35,972 bases of DNA from a virus (taxonomy: Duplodnaviria > Caudoviricetes): positions 1-35,972 of the IMG/VR virus record IMGVR_UViG_3300042366_000722. One strand, 5' to 3'. Shown piece after piece: positions 10,959 through 20,533 of this stretch. The position numbers were made by a program, and so were the translations under genes. The notes beneath the pieces were generated by a model. It had not been told where the DNA came from. It worked only from the letters and a program-made list of their open reading frames with translations, and did not search any database. Every line of letters begins with the position of its first letter. Positions within the stretch are counted from its first letter, which is position 1.

Positions 10959-11443
10959 TCGCCCTGCCCAGCCTTGAGAATGGCCAGCACGTCATCCACA
11001 GATCGCGCCATGCCTGCCACGCCGCCATGAGCAGCGACCGTGGCCAAGAAGTTCTTTTGCGGATCGGACAGGCGTCCGACCTCTGATTTGCACTCGATGG
11101 CCAGTAGCCGGCCGTCTCGCATCTGCCCGATCACATCACTGCACCCAACAAAACCAGCGCGAAAAAATCGGGCATTGCGCCCGTCGCCGATCTTGAATGC
11201 GCCCGTATTCATCCGGCGCACCCACGCCACGGCGGGATGCAGCGCCAGCATCTTGAGCACAGCAGCGAGTATTCCCGCCTCGGGGCCGGGTTTCGGCTTG
11301 CGCTCCGAACGCGGAATGGCAGCCGGCGCTGGCTCAAGCGCGAACGTCGGCCCTTTGCCGAACGCCGCCGCGTAGAAATTCAGCGCTGCATCATTGGCGC
11401 GGCGCGTCTCCGCGAGGGTCTTGGTTTTTATCACGCGGGTCAC
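10853..11443 (-). CDS. VRR-NUC family nuclease
   Basis: GCSDVIG..DGRLLAIECKSEVGRLSDPQKNFL PD-(D/E)xK motif; GTG 11443 overlaps upstream stop. Confidence 0.85.
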   Translation of the reverse strand: MTRVIKTKTLAETRRANDAALNFYAAAFGKGPTFALEPAPAAIPRSERKPKPGPEAGILAAVLKMLALHPAVAWVRRMNTGAFKIGDGRNARFFRAGFVGCSDVIGQMRDGRLLAIECKSEVGRLSDPQKNFLATVAAHGGVAGMARSVDDVLAILKAGQGECNARGFPSGGPHAQPPTTADAAPDPACATATRKP

Positions 11444-11595
11444 AGCGTCGACCCGAATAACCGGCCCACCGGGTACGGCGCCGACCGCTGCCACCAGCTA
11501 CCCATGATCGCCTGCACCTGGTCCACCAGCGCATGGGGGGGGGCAATGCGCTGCCGAGAAATCACGCCATCATGGCAAACCGTTGCAACGATCAT
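11440..11595 (-). CDS. Hypothetical protein
   Basis: 51 aa, ATGA/GTGA coupling on both sides. Confidence 0.45.
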   Translation of the reverse strand: MIVATVCHDGVISRQRIAPPHALVDQVQAIMGSWWQRSAPYPVGRLFGSTL

Positions 11596-11780
11596 GCTGC
11601 CACCCTTGCGTGCATATCGTCCGCGATGCGCTGGCGCCACTGACGAATGTCCTGCACCTGCGTCAGCATGTAATCGACCAGTCCGGGCTTGTCGTCCGAT
11701 GCCCGATACCACTCGCGGATTTCTTCAATCGGGATGTCGAATTCGGCGGCGTACTCCTGCGCGGCTGTGGCGATGCTCAT
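11592..11780 (-). CDS. Hypothetical protein
   Basis: 62 aa, GGAGG RBS, ATGA overlap. Confidence 0.6.
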   Translation of the reverse strand: MSIATAAQEYAAEFDIPIEEIREWYRASDDKPGLVDYMLTQVQDIRQWRQRIADDMHARVAA

Positions 11781-12190
11781 GCCGCCCTCCCAACCAGTAG
11801 ATTTTTCAGCATGGCGTTTTCGGCTTCCGCCGCTTTTGCTCTGTCTTCGGCCTCATCGGCGCGGCGCTCGGCTTCGGACTGGATCACAACAAGGGTGCAG
11901 CCGATCTTGAACGCACGCCATTCGGGGTAGACCTTGTTTCCGACAGCGCGGCAAAACTCCGATTCCTTGTCGGCTTGTAGCGTGGCCTCCCCCTTCTTGA
12001 TGCGTGAAAACGTACCGGCATCAATGCCAAGCTGCATGTAGATTTCTTTGTCTTCCAGCCCGGAAGCCTGACAGGCCAATGCAAACGCTGCGGCCGCGCT
12101 ATGCTGGCGGCGGATCAGATCGATTGGAATTTCGGCCTGTTCAGGGGGGCGAGTCAGTGCCAGTTCTAGGTGGTGCGCAATCCGGTTCAT
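11777..12190 (-). CDS. HTH transcriptional regulator in the cII position
   Basis: SGLEDKEIYMQLGIDAGTFSRIKKG HTH plus C-terminal coiled coil; GGAG RBS before ATG 12190; downstream of cro. Confidence 0.65.
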   Translation of the reverse strand: MNRIAHHLELALTRPPEQAEIPIDLIRRQHSAAAAFALACQASGLEDKEIYMQLGIDAGTFSRIKKGEATLQADKESEFCRAVGNKVYPEWRAFKIGCTLVVIQSEAERRADEAEDRAKAAEAENAMLKNLLVGRAA

Positions 12191-12273
12191 TAAATTTGCT
12201 CCGAGTTGACTAACCAAAATTGGCGAAAAAAAGCAGAGTGACGGCATGAAAACAAACCGGATACACTCCCGCC

Positions 12274-12519
12274 ATGAACAAGGCCTTGGAATTCGTCGGA
12301 TTCAATCTCTGGCTGCTGGCCGTGACCGGCATCGCGTCCGGCGCGTTTCTGCTTTGCGCGAAGGTGATCAAGGCCATCGGCCTGAACGAAACCCCCGAGG
12401 CGTGGCTGCTGTGGGTCGTGTGCCTGCCCGTATTTGTCTGGACGTGGTACTTCGTCGGCAGCCGGTCGCTGCGACTGGTCCAGGCGTACTACAACCGGCG
12501 CGATCCGAGGAAGCATTAG
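12274..12519 (+). CDS. Small membrane protein (2 TM), antisense to the cro operon
   Basis: 81 aa with two hydrophobic segments; stop overlaps the cro stop. Confidence 0.55.
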   Translation: MNKALEFVGFNLWLLAVTGIASGAFLLCAKVIKAIGLNETPEAWLLWVVCLPVFVWTWYFVGSRSLRLVQAYYNRRDPRKH

Positions 12520-12722
12520 GCGGCCTTCGCCGTACCGCTGGCGCCGACTTTCGCCCGCCTGATCTGGCGCCGGAACATCTCGCCATGTTCCAGTTGAACT
12601 CGCGCCGGGATTCCCCGTGCGAGCCAGTTCGTTACTCGCTGCGGCCCGAACTGTCCATAGTTCAGCCGCCTTGCCAGTTCAGCCGGCCCCCCGAATGCTT
12701 CAATGACTGTTTTAGCTTCCAT
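12516..12722 (-). CDS. cro: Cro-like repressor
   Basis: 68 aa; IEAFGGPAELARRL....QRVTNWLARGIP; divergent from cI-like gene. Confidence 0.8.
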   Translation of the reverse strand: MEAKTVIEAFGGPAELARRLNYGQFGPQRVTNWLARGIPARVQLEHGEMFRRQIRRAKVGASGTAKAA

Positions 12723-12730
12723 AGGCCAGA

Positions 12731-12759
12731 AGTATTGCCGAATAAACGCGATGTGTCAA
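12731..12759 (-). promoter_or_regulatory. Sigma70 promoter for cro operon (PR-like)
   Basis: TTGACA-17 nt-AATACT on minus strand directly ahead of cro. Confidence 0.65.
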
Positions 12760-12793
12760 GCGCGATATACATTCATCTGTTTAGCATCAAGCG

Positions 12794-13201
12794 ATGCGAA
12801 TGACTACCGATAAACGGGTGCGCCTGCTAATGAAGGCGACCGATACCGAGGGCAACCAGGCCGAGTTCGGCCGTGTTGCAGGGGTCGGGCGCGCAACCGT
12901 CAATCAATGGCTCTACGCTGACAACACCAGGTCGATAAACTCCGAGGCCGCTTTCCGGCTCTCCGACAAAACGGGGATGTCCGCGCGCTGGGTTGCCTTG
13001 GGCGAGGGGCCGCAAAAAGACTTGAGCGCCAAATTCGGGAAGTTCGATGAATCTGATCTGGATGTTCTGGCCGATCTGTCCGAGCTTCTTTATGAGGATG
13101 CGGCGGACTTCAAGGCGAAGATTAGAAACGCCGCAGAAAAAGCCCGGAGATACCGGCAAAAGGAACCGGATTCCCCCATCCGGCGCACCGGGACAAGATA
13201 A
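12794..13201 (+). CDS. CI-like HTH repressor (no S24 peptidase domain visible)
   Basis: NQAEFGRVAGVGRATVNQWL HTH and SARWVALGEGP motif; divergent from cro; only 135 aa. Confidence 0.75.
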   Translation: MRMTTDKRVRLLMKATDTEGNQAEFGRVAGVGRATVNQWLYADNTRSINSEAAFRLSDKTGMSARWVALGEGPQKDLSAKFGKFDESDLDVLADLSELLYEDAADFKAKIRNAAEKARRYRQKEPDSPIRRTGTR

Positions 13202-13342
13202 CCCTCCCCCGGCTGCGCGTGATCCGGGTTAATGCTAAAGTCATATCTCTAAAGAGTTATATGGATAACCGTGACGAACTGATTAGGCTGGCTAAGTAGG
13301 CGCAGCGGCAGCGCTTTTGCCGTACTTATTTTGGGGCGCATC

Positions 13343-13633
13343 ATGAAAACCATCATTGCATCTGTACTGTTCGCGTCGTCAATGCTTCCGGCTTTTGCAG
13401 CCGATCACAGTCCGCTTGAGACTACCGATCAAGCTCGCCAGCGTCATTCTGCGGAAAACTACGAGGCACAGCGCAGGCAAGAAAACCAGTTGCTTACTCC
13501 GTCGTACCAGCATCCGCTGGGCAGCCCTTCGGTTTCCGGCATTGAACGGCCCGGCTACGTCTCCCCGCAACCGGCCTATCAGCCGGCTACCACTCATGGC
13601 GGAAACTGGCGGGACCGCGTCAAAGGGCGCTGA
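13343..13633 (+). CDS. Secreted/periplasmic hypothetical protein (moron-like)
   Basis: MKTIIASVLFASSMLPAFA signal peptide with AFA cleavage site; followed by terminator. Confidence 0.65.
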   Translation: MKTIIASVLFASSMLPAFAADHSPLETTDQARQRHSAENYEAQRRQENQLLTPSYQHPLGSPSVSGIERPGYVSPQPAYQPATTHGGNWRDRVKGR

Positions 13634-13682
13634 TTCTCTCCTGGCTGCGCTAGTCGGCGCCGGCTGAACCCCATCCGGTAAT

Positions 13683-13710
13683 AAAGCCCGCTCGGTGCGG
13701 GCTTTTTTTT
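13683..13710 (+). terminator. Rho-independent terminator
   Basis: AAAGCCCGC-TCGGT-GCGGGCTTTTTTTT. Confidence 0.9.
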
Positions 13711-13738
13711 CGCCTTACGTCTTACGCGTATATTCCTA

Positions 13739-13767
13739 TTGACACGCTTTGTTTATTCCTCCATACT
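13739..13767 (+). promoter_or_regulatory. Sigma70 promoter of the early recombination/integron/int operon (PL-like)
   Basis: TTGACA-17 nt-CATACT; shares TTGACAC-n5-GTTTATTC with the cro promoter. Confidence 0.75.
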
Positions 13768-13906
13768 GCCATCAATCGCTGAACAACGCGACAGGCAAAA
13801 GCCCCGAGCGGGCCGAGTCAGCCAAGGAAAGAAAGCCCTCTGCCACCGGCAAGGCGTGATCCGACAGCGACACAGCCGACCAGTGCAACGAACATAGGGG
13901 ATTGTC

Positions 13907-14200
13907 ATGGGGTATTTTGAACTCGCCGTAAATCTCACCCGCGCCGAAGCCGCGCCCACGCTGGCGAAGGTTGCCAGCAAGGCTATCGCGCTCAAGACGA
14001 TCAAGAACCGGGCACAGGAAACGTGCTGCTGTTCCTCGTATTCCTTCCCACACCGCGCCGGCTCTGGCTGGTGCCCCGGCGTGAATCGCAACGACGAGCG
14101 CAGCGCAGAAGCCGAGCGCACACGCGAAGAAATCAACGCCGAAGAACTCGCCCTGTTTGATCGGGCCGAGGCTCGGGCTGTCAATTCAGGGGCGCGGTGA
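13907..14200 (+). CDS. Hypothetical protein (Cys/His motif)
   Basis: 97 aa with CCCSSYSFPHRAGSGWC motif; TGATG overlap with next gene. Confidence 0.6.
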   Translation: MGYFELAVNLTRAEAAPTLAKVASKAIALKTIKNRAQETCCCSSYSFPHRAGSGWCPGVNRNDERSAEAERTREEINAEELALFDRAEARAVNSGAR

Positions 14201-14373
14201 TGAACGCCCTGCGCTCCCTGTTCATTCAAATGTGTCTCTGGTGGATCGAGCGCGACATTCGATTCATTCAGCACCAGCGCGAAATGATGCTCGAACACCT
14301 GACCGAAGCGCGCAATCAGCGCATGGCATGGCTGGCCGAGTTGGATGATATTTCAATGGATCGGCCATGCTGA
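14200..14373 (+). CDS. Hypothetical protein
   Basis: Not in ORF track; MNALRSLFIQMCLWWIERD..., 57 aa, overlaps neighbours at both ends. Confidence 0.55.
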   Translation: MNALRSLFIQMCLWWIERDIRFIQHQREMMLEHLTEARNQRMAWLAELDDISMDRPC

Positions 14374-14573
14374 CCAAGGACGCCGCCGTATTCGCCGGGG
14401 TCTGCGTAATGGGCATCTTCGCGCTCGGCCTTGAGATCGGCAAGCAGCATCAGCCGATGCTCTGTCCGGTCGTTCCCGGTCAGCAGATCGTCAGCACCGT
14501 GGCGCCGGATGTTTGCGTCTATGCCAGCAGTTACGGCAGGGCGCTTCGCAAAGTGAAGGCGGTCAAATCATGA
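14367..14573 (+). CDS. Hypothetical membrane-anchored protein
   Basis: 68 aa with N-terminal hydrophobic helix. Confidence 0.55.
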   Translation: MLTKDAAVFAGVCVMGIFALGLEIGKQHQPMLCPVVPGQQIVSTVAPDVCVYASSYGRALRKVKAVKS

Positions 14574-14660
14574 GTGATGACGGCGGCCAATGGTGGCAAA
14601 CCGTAGGACAGCAGGAGCAGCAACGCGCAGACGCGCAATCAACCGGACAGGAGATTAATC

Positions 14661-15536
14661 ATGTTTCAGAAAGCAACCAAGAAGCAAGCCAAGCTGCGGC
14701 TGGCAATCAGCGGCCCGAGCGGATCGGGCAAGACGATGGGCGCGTTACAGGTCGCCTCGGGTCTTGGCGGTAAGCTCGCTCTGGTCGATACCGAACACGG
14801 CAGCGCCAGTCTGTATTCCGGGCGCTTCGCCTTCGACGTGCTGGAACTGGCCCCGCCATTCGCGCCTGAACGCTTCATTGAAGCCATCAACGGCGCTGCG
14901 GCAGCCGGCTACACCGCGCTGATCATCGACAGCGTAACGCACGAATGGGATGGATCGGGCGGCATCCTCGACATTCACGACAAGGTGACACGCGCCGCCA
15001 AGAGCGGCAACAGCTACACCGCCTGGGCGGAAGTCACCCCGCGCCACAATGCGCTGCTGAATGCCATCCTGCGCGCCCCGATCCACATCATTTGCACCCT
15101 GCGCAGCAAGACCGAATATGTCCTGCAAGACGTAGGCGGCAAGTCGGTTCCGCGCAAGCTCGGCATGGCCCCGATCCAGCGCGCCGGCTTCGAGTACGAG
15201 TTCACCACGGTGCTTGATCTGTCCCTCGACAATCACCTGGCCACCGCCACCAAGGACCGCACCAGTCTGTTCGATGGACAGACACCGGAGGCGCTGTCTG
15301 CAGCCACCGGCAAGAAGATGCTTGACTGGCTCAACGATGGCGAACAGCAAGCGCACTACGACGTCGACGCCGCGCTGGCCCGCATGGAGCGCGCCCACAG
15401 CCTGGATGAACTCGCCGCCACCTTCACCGAGCTTTGGCCTGCCGTGCCGCTGGAACACAAGCAGCGCATCGCCGCCGCAAAAGACCACTACAAATCCAAA
15501 TTCAATCCTAATCCCACACAAGGAGCCGCCGCATGA
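14661..15536 (+). CDS. Sak4-like (AAA_24) ssDNA annealing ATPase
   Basis: Walker A GPSGSGKT, LVDTEHGSA, IIDSVTHEW, FEYEF; AGGAG RBS. Confidence 0.85.
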   Translation: MFQKATKKQAKLRLAISGPSGSGKTMGALQVASGLGGKLALVDTEHGSASLYSGRFAFDVLELAPPFAPERFIEAINGAAAAGYTALIIDSVTHEWDGSGGILDIHDKVTRAAKSGNSYTAWAEVTPRHNALLNAILRAPIHIICTLRSKTEYVLQDVGGKSVPRKLGMAPIQRAGFEYEFTTVLDLSLDNHLATATKDRTSLFDGQTPEALSAATGKKMLDWLNDGEQQAHYDVDAALARMERAHSLDELAATFTELWPAVPLEHKQRIAAAKDHYKSKFNPNPTQGAAA

Positions 15537-16249
15537 ACGCACCCACCACCCCGAATCTGACCACCCCGCCGACCTACGGCTACGACACCACCCACGCCGC
15601 TGCTGCTGACACTGGCGGAATGGGCAAGTTCATTGACGAGTCCGGCGAGTACGTCGGCGCCATCACCTACGCTCGCGCCGTCCAATCCTCGAAGGGAGGA
15701 TGGGGCGTCGAGATCGCATTCCAGGCCGACGACGGCCGCAAGACGAAATACCCAATGACCCTCTGGACGCTCGCCGCCGATGGCGCCCGCCAGTTCGGGC
15801 ATGACATCCTCGACACCGTTTTGATCTGCGCCGGCATGAAACCCGCGATGGCCATGAAGCCCGGCAAGGTCACGTACACCGTCTATGACTTCGACCTGCG
15901 CGCCGATGTCGAAAAGGAAGGCGACGGCTATCCCGGCCTGACCGGCAAGCGCATCGGCCTGCTGATCCAGCGCGAGATGTACACCACCAAGGCCGGCAAG
16001 GATGCAGCGCGGCACTCGATCTATGGCGCCTTCGATGCCGAGACACGGCAGGCAGCGAGCGAGAAGCTGGAAAGCAAGCCCGCGGTAATCACCGAGAAGC
16101 GCCTGGCATCGCTCAAGGATCGCGACTCGCGCACCGCTGGCGCACCGGCTGGAAGCTACGACAACGGGTTCAGCGCACCAAGCGGCGCACCGAATCCCGC
16201 GCCGGCTGCCGGATCGTTTGATGACATGGCTGACGATATTCTGTTCTGA
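15533..16249 (+). CDS. Putative single-stranded DNA-binding protein
   Basis: Follows Sak4; FIDESGEYVG start and acidic-aromatic tail DDMADDILF. Confidence 0.7.
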   Translation: MNAPTTPNLTTPPTYGYDTTHAAAADTGGMGKFIDESGEYVGAITYARAVQSSKGGWGVEIAFQADDGRKTKYPMTLWTLAADGARQFGHDILDTVLICAGMKPAMAMKPGKVTYTVYDFDLRADVEKEGDGYPGLTGKRIGLLIQREMYTTKAGKDAARHSIYGAFDAETRQAASEKLESKPAVITEKRLASLKDRDSRTAGAPAGSYDNGFSAPSGAPNPAPAAGSFDDMADDILF

Positions 16250-16251
16250 TC

Positions 16252-16755
16252 ATGGGACTCCCCGCCCTCTACGAACTGGCGTCTGAGTACCGCGCCGCCG
16301 CCGCGCAGCTTGCCGACCTCGACCTTCCTCCGGAGGTTGTGGCCGACACGCTCGAAGGCTTGGCCGGCGATCTGGAAACCAAGTCGACCAACGTCGCCAT
16401 GTTCATCCGCTCGCTAGATGCTACCGCTGCGCAGATCAAGGACGCCGAAGCCGCAATGGCAGCCAGGCGCAAGGCCATCGAAGCCCGCGCTGATCATGTA
16501 CGCAAGTACCTGCTGGACAACATGCAGGCGTGTGGCATTACAAAGATCGAATCGCCCTGGTTCAAATTGTCTGTTCGCCAGAATCCGGCTGCCGTGGTAA
16601 TTGATAACGCTGGACTGATACCGGGGAATCTGTACGTCTACCCGTCAGCGCCGGAACCCTACCCCGATAAAAAAGCGATCAAGGCCGCCATCGAAGCCGG
16701 TATTGAATTTGAGGGCGCGCACCTTGAGCGCGGCGTAAGACTTGAAATCAAGTGA
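16252..16755 (+). CDS. Siphovirus Gp157 family protein
   Basis: LYELASEY...DTLEGL.GDLETK...RQNPAAV...PDKKAIKAAI. Confidence 0.85.
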   Translation: MGLPALYELASEYRAAAAQLADLDLPPEVVADTLEGLAGDLETKSTNVAMFIRSLDATAAQIKDAEAAMAARRKAIEARADHVRKYLLDNMQACGITKIESPWFKLSVRQNPAAVVIDNAGLIPGNLYVYPSAPEPYPDKKAIKAAIEAGIEFEGAHLERGVRLEIK

Positions 16756-16943
16756 ATGACAGACACCACCAAGGCACCGAAAGCCTCCTAGAACTCGCCG
16801 CCGAACTCGAAGAAGTCGCGCCGAATGTCGAGGAATTCTTCAGCCACAAGCGGGCGGCGGCTCTCATGCGGAAAACGGCGGGAGTGGTGCGGAGGCTTGC
16901 GCCACTTGAACCGGAAATTGATGTCGTGCTGGGGGAGCATTGA
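16752..16943 (+). CDS. Hypothetical protein
   Basis: 63 aa, GTGA overlap upstream, TGATG overlap downstream. Confidence 0.55.
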   Translation: MNDRHHQGTESLLELAAELEEVAPNVEEFFSHKRAAALMRKTAGVVRRLAPLEPEIDVVLGEH

Positions 16944-17026
16944 TGAGTCTCAACGCAAAAGCTGTGGGGCTGGACGCCGCAGGCGGACAGTCCCACACGA
17001 GCGACGGGTTGTGCCCCGGCGATTGA
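16943..17026 (+). CDS. 27-aa mini-ORF reading through the attC hairpin
   Basis: MSLNAKAVGLDAAGGQSHTSDGLCPGD*; GGGGAG SD and TGATG coupling; stop lies just before the RBS of the cassette gene. Confidence 0.5.
   Translation: MSLNAKAVGLDAAGGQSHTSDGLCPGD
16948..17014 (-). other. attC recombination site (67 bp)
   Basis: Minus strand: R'' GCACAAC-5 nt-L'' GCTCGTGT...L' CCACAGC-6 nt-R' GTTGAGA; imperfect hairpin with unpaired extra bases on the R''-L'' arm. Confidence 0.85.
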
Positions 17027-17370
17027 ACGGAGAACGAAATGCAGCAATGCGAGCGACTGCGAAAGCACAACCGCTGGAGGCGCGGCGACAAGCGCCTGAA
17101 GATGCCAGACCCGAAAGAACTCGGGGAACTGATCGACGGCGTGGCCGACCGGCTGGAAGTGCTGGAGCGCGAACACACGGAGTTTTTCGACCGCTGGCAC
17201 GATGAGCGGCGGAAGCGAGAGAAGCTGGCGTACGACGTTGAGCGGTGTTATCGGATGCTGCTATCGGAGCCAGACACGAAGGGCGCACTTTTCAAGGCCG
17301 AAAACATCCTGCGCGAGGCGCTGGGCGACCAGAAAGTCGGCGCTGGCGGGACGGCACCCGAGGGGCACAA
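16954..17370 (-). mobile_element. Integron gene cassette (417 bp) carrying an inverted ORF
   Basis: Bounded by AAC crossover triplets at 16952-54 and 17369-71; GTTGTGCCCC (17008-17017) is a perfect 10-bp complement of GGGGCACAAC (17362-17371), as expected for R''/R' of one circular cassette. Confidence 0.8.
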
Positions 17371-17401
17371 CTTAAATTCAACGACACCCGATGTCGCGTG
17401 A
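17039..17401 (+). CDS. Cassette-borne hypothetical protein; last 9 codons and stop supplied by attI
   Basis: 120 aa, GGAG RBS; LRKHNRWRRG...PKELGELID N-terminus, helical remainder. Confidence 0.7.
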   Translation: MQQCERLRKHNRWRRGDKRLKMPDPKELGELIDGVADRLEVLEREHTEFFDRWHDERRKREKLAYDVERCYRMLLSEPDTKGALFKAENILREALGDQKVGAGGTAPEGHNLNSTTPDVA

Positions 17402-17424
17402 ACACCGGAACCATGTCGCATAAC
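17362..17424 (-). other. attI-like site
   Basis: Minus strand CGTTGAA-TTTAA-GTTGTGC simple site plus two direct repeats GTTATGCGACAT / GTTCACGCGACAT, between the cassette and the intI start; no attC-type hairpin. Confidence 0.7.
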
Positions 17425-17452
17425 TCTGCACGCATCCACGGAGGCCTGCACC

Positions 17453-18496
17453 ATGACTGAAGTCATTGAACGAAACGCGACAACGCCCGCCGTCAAACGC
17501 GACATGCCGACCGCTTCACCGGCACAGCAAAAGCCGGTCAAGTTGCTCGACCAGGTGCGCGAGCGAATCTGCGTGCTGCATTACGCCCGCGCCACCGAGA
17601 AAACCTACCTCTACTGGATCAAGTTTTACATCCACTTTCACAGCCTGCGTCACCCCCGCGACATGGGCGCCGCCGAGGTCGAAGCCTTCCTCTCGCACCT
17701 AGCCACGGCGCGCGACGTCGCCGCCGGCACACAGAACCAAGCCATGCACGCCATCCTGTTCCTTTACAAGCAGGTGCTCGGCATCGATCTGCCTTGGCTC
17801 GACGGCATCACCCGCGCCAAGCCATCGAAGCGACTGCCCGTCGTACTCACCCAGGGCGAGGCGCAGCGCTTGCTCGCCGCCACACGCGGCACGCCGGGGC
17901 TGGTGGTGCGCCTGCTCTACGGCAGCGGCATGCGCCTCATGGAAGGCCTGCGGCTGCGCGTCAAGGACATCGACTTCGAGCGCAACCAGATCACCATCCG
18001 CGGCGGCAAAGGCGACAAGGACCGCGTCACCATGCTGCCGGCCAGCATCGTCCCTGCCCTGCAGGCCCACCTCGCCGAACGTCGCCGCTGGCATGACAAG
18101 GATTTGGCCACCGGCATGGCTGATGTTGAACTGCCGCATGCGCTAGAGCGCAAATACCCGAATGCCGGCAAAGAGTGGGGATGGCAATACGTTTTCGCCG
18201 CCGCCGACTACAGCACCGACCCGCGCACTGGCGTGATTCGCCGCCACCACATTCACGAAAAGACCATCCAGCGCCACGTCAAGGATGCCGCCCAGCGCGC
18301 CGGCATCAGCAAGCTGGCGCATCCGCACACGCTTAGGCACTCGTTTGCCACACACCTGCTGGAGGCCGGCTATGACATCCGCACCGTGCAGGAGCTGCTC
18401 GGCCACAGCGACGTGGCGACCACCATGATCTATACCCACGTCCTCAATAAAGGCGGTCGCGGCGTTGTCAGCCCGCTGGATCGCGTCACGACATGA
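17453..18496 (+). CDS. intI: Integron integrase (IntI family tyrosine recombinase)
   Basis: R-K-H-R-H-Y residues ([37 protein letters not shown]) plus the IntI-specific insertion [24 protein letters not shown]...[13 protein letters not shown] and the SPLD tail. Confidence 0.95.
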
Positions 18497-18648
18497 CCGA
18501 ACGCGCCCAGCACATCCACTGCGCCCGCGTATATCTGACCGAGGCCCGCCGTCGCCGGACTCAGACCTTCGGCTTCGTGTTGCTGGAATGGGCCGGGAAT
18601 GCGAGAAGGCGGGCGATGGCGGCTACCGGGCAGGGGGAGTTGTTCTGA
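18493..18648 (+). CDS. Hypothetical protein
   Basis: Not in ORF track; ATGA overlap with intI; [22 protein letters not shown]...QGELF, 51 aa. Confidence 0.6.
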
Positions 18649-18650
18649 TC

Positions 18651-18962
18651 GTGGCTCCCGATCTGCTCACCTACGAAGCAGCGGCAGCACTGCTCACTGT
18701 CAGCCCGGCCACCGTGCGCCGGCTGGTGCGTGCCGGGCATCTGCGCGGGCACGCTATTACCCGACGCTGCCATCGGGTTGACGCCGCCAGCGTGCGGGCG
18801 TACCTTCGCACGTCCGCCATCCCCGTCCTCGTCCTATGTCAGTCTGGAAAAACCGCGATACCTGGCGCTGGCGCGTCATGCGCGGCGGCCTTGTCGCTAC
18901 AGGAAGCGCACGAACGCGCGAAACGGCGCTTGCGGCAGAAGCGGGCGCCCGCCGCGAACTGA
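18651..18962 (+). CDS. xis: Excisionase-like HTH protein
   Basis: GTG after GGGGAG; LLTYEAAAALLTVSPATVRRLVRAGHL; overlaps the integrase start. Confidence 0.7.
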   Translation: MAPDLLTYEAAAALLTVSPATVRRLVRAGHLRGHAITRRCHRVDAASVRAYLRTSAIPVLVLCQSGKTAIPGAGASCAAALSLQEAHERAKRRLRQKRAPAAN

Positions 18963-19861
18963 TCGCCGGAATCACCGGCACCCAGCCAAAGCGCACACTT
19001 GACGAAGCTCTGGTGCGCTATCTCGACAGTCCGGAATTTCTCACCCTCAAAAGCGCCGCCAGTTTGGCCGACAAGCTCGCTACCTGGCACCCCTACATCA
19101 CCGCGCAACCGATCGAGCGCGCCGCCGATGTCGCTGATGTCGCCGTGCGCGACTGGCTCGCCAATGACCTGGCCATCGCCACCATCAATCGCCGGCTTTC
19201 CGGGCTGCGGCGCATCTTGGCGCTGGCGTATAAGCGTTGGCAGTGGATCGACCGCGATATTGCCGTGCGAATCCCGCTGCTACCGGGCGAGAACCAGCGG
19301 CAAGTATGGCTTACCCGCGCCGAGGCTGTGCGCTTGCGTCGCGCCTGCCCGCCCGGTCGCAGCCGGGCCGCTATTACCCTGCTGGTCACCACCGGCCTGC
19401 GCGTGGGCGAATTGCTCGCATTGCGCGCCGAGCAGGTCCGCGACGGCGCCATCCATCTTGACGCGCGTACCAAGACCGGCCGCCCCCGGGCGGTGCCGAT
19501 ACTTCCCCCGGGTAATCGCTACACCAGCCATGTGCCGCTGCGCATGAGTTATGACGGACTGCGCACCGCCTTTGATCGTGCAAAGCGTGCCGCCGGCTTG
19601 CCATCGATCCGCCTGCATGATCTGCGACATACCGTCGGCAGTCTGCTGGCCGAATCAGGCGCCAGCTTGCGTGATATTCAGGTCTGGCTCGGGCACACCA
19701 GCCCGGTGACCAGCACCCGCTACACCCACGTCGAGCTTGCCCGGTTGCGCAGCGTAGCAGACCAGGTGCATGCGCGCAATCTGCGCGCAAAGGACAGCGC
19801 AAACCGGGCGCAACTGGCGCGAGTGACGCCAGAGACACAACGGGAAACGCAGCCTAAGTGA
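18836..19861 (+). CDS. int: Phage integrase (tyrosine recombinase)
   Basis: TGLRVGELLAL, TKTG, HDLRHT, LGHTS..TSTRYTH; ends 11 bp before a tRNA-derived att core. Confidence 0.92.
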   Translation: MSVWKNRDTWRWRVMRGGLVATGSARTRETALAAEAGARRELIAGITGTQPKRTLDEALVRYLDSPEFLTLKSAASLADKLATWHPYITAQPIERAADVADVAVRDWLANDLAIATINRRLSGLRRILALAYKRWQWIDRDIAVRIPLLPGENQRQVWLTRAEAVRLRRACPPGRSRAAITLLVTTGLRVGELLALRAEQVRDGAIHLDARTKTGRPRAVPILPPGNRYTSHVPLRMSYDGLRTAFDRAKRAAGLPSIRLHDLRHTVGSLLAESGASLRDIQVWLGHTSPVTSTRYTHVELARLRSVADQVHARNLRAKDSANRAQLARVTPETQRETQPK

Positions 19862-19988
19862 TTGTTTTTACGTGGTGCCCGGAACCGGACTTGAACCGGT
19901 ATGGCTTGCGCCGAGGGATTTTAAGTCCCGCGAATGCGTATTTGTAATCATGTAGTTAGCTTGTTTGTGCGCGCAAAATACGCGCAAC
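19771..19988. repeat. Putative integrase arm-type sites flanking the attP core
   Basis: Tandem TGCGCGCAA-like pairs at ~19771-19790 and ~19968-19988, with AT-rich tracts next to the core. Confidence 0.5.
19873..19929 (-). other. attP core: 3' part of tRNA-Leu(UAA)
   Basis: Minus strand GGGACTTAAAATCCCTCGGCGCAAGCCATACCGGTTCAAGTCCGGTTCCGGGCACCA has anticodon arm (TAA), long variable arm, T arm and CCA; 5' half is absent. Confidence 0.9.
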
Positions 19989-20098
19989 AGGTCGCAGAGC
20001 GCGCATTCTATACCGCTGCCGCCGCGCGACCTCACTCGGGAATGGCGCGTTCGCCCGCAGCTTGAGTGTCGAAACGTAGCAGCGGAGGATGCCGGACC

Positions 20099-20533
20099 TC
20101 ATTTCATTTTGTCGAGGATGGTGTAGCAGGCTTCGAGTCCGGCGTCTCCTCGGGCAGCAAGGGCAGCGATCCGCGCAAGAAATCGGCTATGAGCGCCTGA
20201 TAGTTCAGCCCCGTTGGCACCCTCACAACCAGATCGGGGAGCTTCGGACACTCCGGCGGGGCGCTCGGGGCGGTCGCGCAGGCTGTCAAGAGCAGTATCG
20301 AGAGTGCGCTGCACGCCAGCCAGGCGCGCGGCTTGTTTTTTCGTGGCTGCATCGTAAGCCTCCTGTAGTTTTCTTTCAGTGTCGCGGGCAGCTTTGAAAG
20401 AATCGGCCCGTTCTTTTTCAATCTTCGCCGTCCAGCGCGTGTCGGCGGCATTGCTGCCGTGGGCATTCCAATAGAACCCGTTGGCGACAAAAGCCAGCAC
20501 CACGGCCAGCAGAAGCATCGGATTGGGGATCAT
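20099..20533 (-). CDS. i-spanin (Rz-like)
   Basis: ATG 20533 overlaps endolysin stop; N-terminal TM then coiled coil, C-terminal Cys. Confidence 0.75.
   Translation of the reverse strand: MIPNPMLLLAVVLAFVANGFYWNAHGSNAADTRWTAKIEKERADSFKAARDTERKLQEAYDAATKKQAARLAGVQRTLDTALDSLRDRPERPAGVSEAPRSGCEGANGAELSGAHSRFLARIAALAARGDAGLEACYTILDKMK
20104..20352 (-). CDS. o-spanin lipoprotein (Rz1-like), embedded in Rz
   Basis: Signal with lipobox LLLTA-C then Pro-rich APSAPPECPKLP, in another frame inside Rz. Confidence 0.75.
   Translation of the reverse strand: MQPRKNKPRAWLACSALSILLLTACATAPSAPPECPKLPDLVVRVPTGLNYQALIADFLRGSLPLLPEETPDSKPATPSSTK

Follow-up and report, generated by a model that had tools for sequence, protein, structure and literature searches.

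Organization of the integron and its phage

The window, that is, the whole stretch of viral DNA analysed (35,972 nt), carries an integron with a single gene cassette, which lies between a short phage gene and attI; intI, an excisionase-like gene (xis) and the phage integrase gene (int) all follow downstream of the cassette on the same strand. Profile searches of the PHROG type found genes for capsid, terminase, lysis, repressor, Sak4/SSB/Gam-like proteins, excisionase and integrase, and with the terminal overlap of 127 nt this gene content marks the window as the genome of a circular temperate phage. The best-matching sequencing runs were lake or freshwater metagenomes, 7 of them containing at least half of the window's words and 2 of these being possible sources; no RNA run was listed among the runs matching the window. 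The features are as follows.

13739..13767 (+), sigma-70-like candidate promoter after a terminator-like site, 10/12 consensus
16752..16943 (+), platform gene, 63 aa, its TGA overlapping the ATG of the mini-ORF; 100% identical in locus L001
16943..17026 (+), predicted mini-ORF across attC, 27 codons, ATG to TGA
16948..17014 (+), attC, read as bottom strand: R' 16948-54, crossover between AA and C at 16953/54, left arm 16961-72, R'' 17008-14
16991, 16995 and 16999 (+), extrahelical bases T, A and G of attC
16954..17370 (+), gene cassette, 417 bp, delimited by R''/R' complementarity and by copies elsewhere in L001 and other phages
17029..17032 (+), Shine-Dalgarno GGAG of the cassette gene
17039..17401 (+), cassette gene: 110 aa within the cassette, then Asn and a 9-aa attI tail
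17365..17424 (+), attI, kept upstream of phage IntI genes, variable 5' of AAC
17365-71, R box of attI, crossover between AA and C at 17370/71; candidate L box 17377-83
17391-403 and 17413-24, two direct repeats of attI
17453..18496 (+), integron integrase IntI, 347 aa, on the cassette gene's strand, TIGR02249
18648-18962, excisionase-like gene preceding the phage integrase, from profile searches
18836..19861 (+), phage integrase, separate from IntI, from profile searches

The attC hairpin, on the + strand, bears AAC at the 5' end and GTT at the 3' end; counted from the R'' end, its unpaired G, A and T are bases 16, 20 and 24 (G16/A20/T24), the extrahelical positions named for attCoxa2 in PMC5027507. 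From these ends and the attCoxa2-like positions, the + strand is read as the recombining bottom strand, so that the cassette gene is carried on it, the reverse of bacterial cassettes; this orientation was absent from an earlier, sequence-only reading of the window. Because the gene is inverted with respect to attC, it ends at the crossover. The R'' box is the exact complement of the cassette's own end at 17365-71 (4/4 bases). Folding gave z −3.96 for RNA of 16950-17015 and a modest z −1.37 for DNA of 16945-17020.

At the left junction, the TGA of the 63-aa gene (16941-43) overlaps the mini-ORF ATG (16943-45), and the AAC at 16952-54 is the fourth codon of the mini-ORF. The latter spans the whole hairpin in the frame of the cassette gene and ends with the only stop between the two (TGA, 17024-26), 2 nt before the GGAG and 12 nt before the ATG at 17039. 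At the right junction, the AAC at 17369-71 is codon 111 of the cassette ORF, the last nine codons and the stop of which lie in attI. The sequence-only reading had taken both AAC triplets for in-frame Asn codons, with a TGATG-coupled mini-ORF running through the hairpin to just before the ribosome-binding site and a cassette ORF lacking an internal stop and ending in attI; coordinates and translations proved correct, the observation was confirmed base for base, and a script joining the two crossover points reproduced the single 13-aa ORF that excision had been said to restore. Two in-frame junctions alone have a 1-in-9 chance, and it is the family counts given below, not these two junctions, that make the frame non-random. 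The cassette protein had no Pfam, NCBIfam or PHROG match, and the Atlas gave unnamed clusters only.

The IntI protein scored 482 bits against TIGR02249 (cut-off 265), with R161, H292-R295, H318, Y327 and the IntI insertion (226-248) all present. The AAC crossover of attI lies 84 nt upstream of intI, and relatives are conserved 3' of it and variable 5' of it; the boxes within attI are candidates, assigned by analogy with attI1. With IntI, attI and attC all recognizable from these features, the element is classed as an integron. A quick tree of 119 IntI proteins placed all 26 that have a phage-type attI in a viral-only group of 30 rows (SH-aLRT 93, not starred), for which a single origin is plausible; no bacterial-genome IntI was found inside the group, 4 of the 64 parts of the bacterial collection having been scanned. 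In locus L048 (475-950) only some 150 codons of a phage-type intI are present before the sequence passes into other phage DNA, which would be a deletion or a misassembly.

The promoter at 13739..13767 is a candidate driver of an early operon that would run through the cassette into intI; the match is weak, since 2 sites of this grade were found and 2.0 were expected from shuffles. The LexA-box motif CTG[TG]-N8-[AC]CAG, expected at the intI promoter of SOS-regulated integrons, had no match in 11001-20500, although the LexA box of the host may differ from this motif. Directly after the phage integrase, the 3' part of a tRNA-Leu(TAA)-like sequence was seen by eye (19873-19929, − strand) and is probably attP; ARAGORN found no full tRNA, and the Rfam search gave no match.

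Strand and reading frame across the family

At least 430 loci were fetched in addition to the window, and attC sites, genes and clusters were called with in-house scripts. The 424 adjacent-site pairs formed 292 clusters, which were kept if R'' and the following junction were complementary in no fewer than 3 of 4 bases (197/249 viral, 37/43 bacterial); 44 loci fetched later were left out of the family counts. A gene call was a full-length ORF led by a Shine-Dalgarno sequence. Three ambiguous calls among the 114 on the bottom strand were dropped, leaving 111 for the frame counts. The p-values below overstate independence, because cassettes and attC sites are related.

Among the 197 viral cassettes, 110 had a gene on the bottom strand only, 4 on both strands, 1 on the top strand only and 82 had no call, as against 1 bottom, 8 top and 28 without call among the 37 bacterial cassettes (viral vs bacterial p 1e-10). 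The canonical layout, with a top-strand gene 5' of attC, is therefore not that of the viral cassettes. In two loci (L005 3244-3326 and L122 5351-5461) a Shine-Dalgarno sequence and an ATG lie inside the attC terminal loop, so that the gene perhaps starts within the hairpin; such starts are mostly missed by the gene caller and may explain part of the cassettes without call.

The genes met the downstream AAC in frames 0, 1 and 2 in 64, 21 and 26 of 111 cases (p 3e-7), 58% being in frame, and those that crossed it did so in frame in 61/62 cases. This answers a check put forward with the sequence-only reading, the frame of AAC over many phage cassettes against an expectation of 1/3. The in-frame genes without a stop made up 61 of the 111, and 45 others stopped in their own cassette end (at −1, −8, −11 or −14). 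By frame, all 21 frame-1 genes stopped at −1, with a TAA overlapping AAC, and 25 of the 26 frame-2 genes before AAC, at −8 or earlier. Out-of-frame read-through was thus confined to 1/47. The result also held with one cassette sampled per locus, in loci not chosen by attC pattern (28/29 read-throughs in frame) and for the 35 PHROG-confirmed genes found among the 60 longest of the 114 scanned (15/15; frames 17/7/11).

Downstream of the crossover, frame 0 led to fusion with, or overrun of, the following start in 3/112 cases and the other two frames did so in 27 each; 200 shuffles gave 26.2±3.7 such cases for frame 0, with a minimum of 17. Outright fusion with the next gene was seen in 0/112. A stop at +6 was present in 51/191 viral and 2/36 bacterial attC sites (p 0.005), and at attI junctions the stop came within 17 codons in 33/33. 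A putative restart codon accompanied 41/45 of the stopped genes and 34/61 of the read-through genes (bacterial, 12/37), an enrichment that is partly circular for TGA at −8 and not significant for the −1 class alone (17/21 vs 34/61, p 0.07).

The claim that each attC supplies the tail and stop of the preceding gene consequently stands for AAC-frame genes, but not for the 45/111 that stop inside their own cassette. The idea that cassette length keeps the reading frame did not survive: lengths modulo 3 were spread over 56/73/68, and the 417 bp of the window are no rule.

Cassette movement and C-terminal tails

That AAC is the true crossover follows from the complementarity of R'' and the cassette end, from the point at which L001 diverges and from the limits of matches in other phages. 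L001, whose IntI is 100% identical to that of the window and which is taken as the same phage, has a left junction identical up to AAC plus three bases and then diverges; it holds the window's cassette (92% identical) at another array position, between two other cassettes. A 33,888-nt contig of run X5 matches 16250-16957 and 17369-18500 without differences, and contains two more cassettes, with extra DNA flanking both sides of the shared one. The identity of the flanking phage DNA does not extend into the shared cassette, which differs from that of the window at 34 positions (17048-17290); the window's allele was therefore likely acquired separately from that of X5. In runs X7 and X10 the cassette is present in other contexts, the match extending from 16951/16952 to 17371 and no further. 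By these comparisons, cassettes move as units at the crossover.

A natural empty site appears in L035, a locus in which no attC was called: a 118-codon frame ends in a TGATG overlap, and AAC is crossed by an ORF of 13 aa whose stop lies in attI. An empty form of the window's own phage was not listed in 8 runs, whose contigs show presence only. In two loci of other phages (L472 and L473), a homologue of the 63-aa gene is followed by a TGATG-N6-AAC junction into a related attC, and the end of this gene is therefore a recurring array start. The oldest attC of L001 (2612-2660), at the platform junction, looks shortened by deletion, and its AAC frame stops one codon later; the shortening would lock its cassette in place.

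The change of neighbours changes protein ends, as the sequence-only reading had anticipated. The cassette gene of the window carries the 9-residue attI tail here, G* in L001 and L431, A* in L350 and VK* in L432. In L001 an unrelated 173-codon frame reads into the window-type attC in the AAC frame and takes the mini-ORF peptide as its tail, so that the predicted occurrence of such a C-terminus on an unrelated N-terminus was borne out. Homologs of the cassette protein comprised 40 rows (44 loci given): by eye from the protein ends, 27 had a junction-like Asn followed by 19 different tails and 13 had none.

Proposed function of the frame rule and relation to known integrons

We propose that the one-frame, guaranteed-stop junction rule prevents fused or run-on proteins after cassette shuffling, a reading to which we give a probability of about 0.7. 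In this phage-resident integron, the cassette gene sits on the bottom strand of attC, runs in the direction of the early genes and intI, and reaches up to the crossover. Genes that meet AAC in frame lack a stop of their own and end in the attC or attI that follows, where a stop in this frame nearly always precedes the next start; genes in the two other frames are closed within the end of their cassette, either by TAA at −1 or by stops at −8/−11/−14, usually beside a start codon that reopens the AAC frame. Insertion by IntI would be at attI, as in other integrons, and transcription would run from the upstream early promoter (a weak match) through the array into intI; from these two steps the newest cassette would come last in the transcript. 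The mini-ORFs are presumed to be translated. Such a rule would tend to reinforce itself, since an overhang is safe beside any neighbour only if it is in the AAC frame, and its purpose is likely the safe reshuffling of cassettes.

Were the pattern a by-product of a core-site consensus that happens to hold stops in two frames, without translational selection, a similar motif would be no surprise in bacterial attC flanks, and a weaker one is found there (start codon at −9 in 14/52, stop at +6 in 6/52), which argues that part of the pattern was inherited. However, the viral cassette ends have T at −1 in only 120/197 and a stop at −8 in only 64/197, yet out-of-frame read-through is nearly absent, and the frame-0 overrun lies far below the shuffles; the by-product reading is already contradicted and very improbable. 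The rule might instead serve to carry ribosomes through each attC hairpin and so couple translation of the whole array, as the sequence-only reading supposed. The cassette of the window fits, its mini-ORF stop lying beyond the hairpin, so that ribosomes would be delivered beside the Shine-Dalgarno sequence, and in the homolog L432 a different in-frame stop lies 1 nt before the ATG; restart codons are enriched, and PMC8876359 reports that short ORFs in attC and ORF-11 aid downstream translation. But this is a minority arrangement: of 114 cases, frame 0 is closed by +8 in 39 and within the hairpin in 41, leaving 34 in which the stop lies beyond it, and ribosomes would be brought to 25 nt or less from the following ATG, with relays counted, in 48/112 against 48.2±3.8 in shuffles. 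The predicted accessibility of the initiation region barely changed, from 0.55 to 0.57 (n=108), when attC was held open. Family-wide coupling or relay, for which there is no excess over shuffles, was accordingly rejected, and as the purpose of the rule coupling is doubtful; at most it is a local extra that may apply to cassettes like that of the window. Two related candidates were also discarded: hiding of the ribosome-binding site by attC, given the negligible effect on accessibility, and pairing of the Shine-Dalgarno sequence and AUG with platform sequence in the minimum-energy RNA fold, which was lost on ensemble averaging.

Restart mini-ORFs could, without reaching the next start, keep ribosomes on the mRNA and limit polarity or decay in a long early operon. 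The restart enrichment and the position of intI, xis and int downstream on the same strand are consistent with this, as is the lowering of downstream mRNA by untranslated stretches in class 1 arrays described in PMC11511950; against it, a median of 39.5 nt still separates the frame-0 stop from the following ATG, and 39/112 tails have only 2 codons, and we regard this reading, too, as doubtful. A third alternative gives the tails a function. In a shufflon, a single gene exchanges its functional C-terminal domains through inversion between sites, and shuffling of cassettes might similarly swap C-termini to tune stability or activity, as the 19 tails among the homologs and the 17 cassette clusters with more than one downstream neighbour would allow. 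The phage tails differ in that they arise by IntI insertion and excision, affect many different genes and measure 2-36 codons (mode 2); they are low-complexity translations of hairpins, and about 45% of the called genes take none. A tuning function is accordingly improbable, and the tails are probably for the most part tolerated by-products.

Both phage-borne integrons and small ORFs that run across att sites have been described before. Jacquier (2009) is cited for ORF-11/ORF-18 of attI1 and the short ORFs in attC. As reviewed in PMC8876359, such a small ORF spans the crossover and receives its stop from the inserted cassette, as here, but ORF-11/ORF-18 are leader peptides on the top strand at the first position, whereas in the phages the cargo proteins themselves run across each junction, always on the bottom strand and in a single frame. 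The phage system shares with class 1 and chromosomal integrons (Nivina 2016, PMC5027507) the IntI family, the AAC crossover, R'/R'' complementarity, the three extrahelical bases, the polarity of attC relative to intI and insertion at attI. Unlike them, the phages carry their genes on the bottom strand with attC 5' of its gene, and expression would come from the operon at the far side of the array, not from Pc, with the newest cassette last. The phage-borne integrons and CALINs of Qi et al. 2023 (PMC9892861) share integron parts in phage genomes and DNA methyltransferase cargo, but their complete integrons are captured host or class 1 pieces, and a phage-only IntI group, inverted genes or a frame rule do not figure in the parts of the text covered. 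In the gcuF1-blaOXA-28 fusion (Hocquet 2012, PMC3375312) read-through of attC likewise makes the protein output position dependent, as a single in-frame fusion of the kind that the phage family avoids. The inverted-integrase integrons of Treponema (Cury 2016, PMC4889954) also have intI and cassette genes on one strand; there intI is flipped relative to attC, whereas in the phages intI-attC polarity is standard and the genes are flipped. No account of inverted, in-frame phage cassettes was found in the literature covered, which lay mostly outside subscription journals and took in Qi et al. 2023 without its supplements, where CALIN orientation is annotated.

Integrons are usually treated as bacterial devices of one polarity. 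That there is an IntI group confined to viruses, with an attI of its own, inverted genes and arrays that have changed recently, suggests that the early-gene content of temperate phages is varied by integron chemistry, and the frame rule would represent selection on reading frame across a recombination site. The C-termini of many metagenomic hypothetical proteins may be products of reading through attC hairpins, differing from one array position to another, and phage genes would be assigned to the wrong attC by cassette finders that look for it at the 3' end of the gene. The cargo genes scanned include DNA methyltransferases and PAPS-reductase-like, Mom-like, RNA ligase and nuclease families. 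It is conceivable, though rather unlikely as a whole, that a phage-native integron lineage has its own pool of bottom-strand cassettes, made from early genes (methyltransferases, PAPS-reductase-like, Mom-like, nucleases) and joined through a codon-level interface, in which array position sets the tail and thereby stability or activity, and from which host chromosomal integrons capture cassettes. If true, the origin of new cassettes could become directly traceable, since homologues outside cassettes exist for many of the cargo genes.

Host capture of phage cassettes is suggested by a single MAG contig of Gallionella (L122, 5351-6860), the IntI of which groups with chromosomal Gallionella integrases. 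Three phage-type bottom-strand genes lie nearest its attI, each ending on an in-frame Asn; farther out come a transposase-like ORF and genes on the top strand, among them a pair resembling a toxin-antitoxin system. A viral contig (L037, 1066-3635) combines an IntI of chromosomal type with bottom-strand cassettes.
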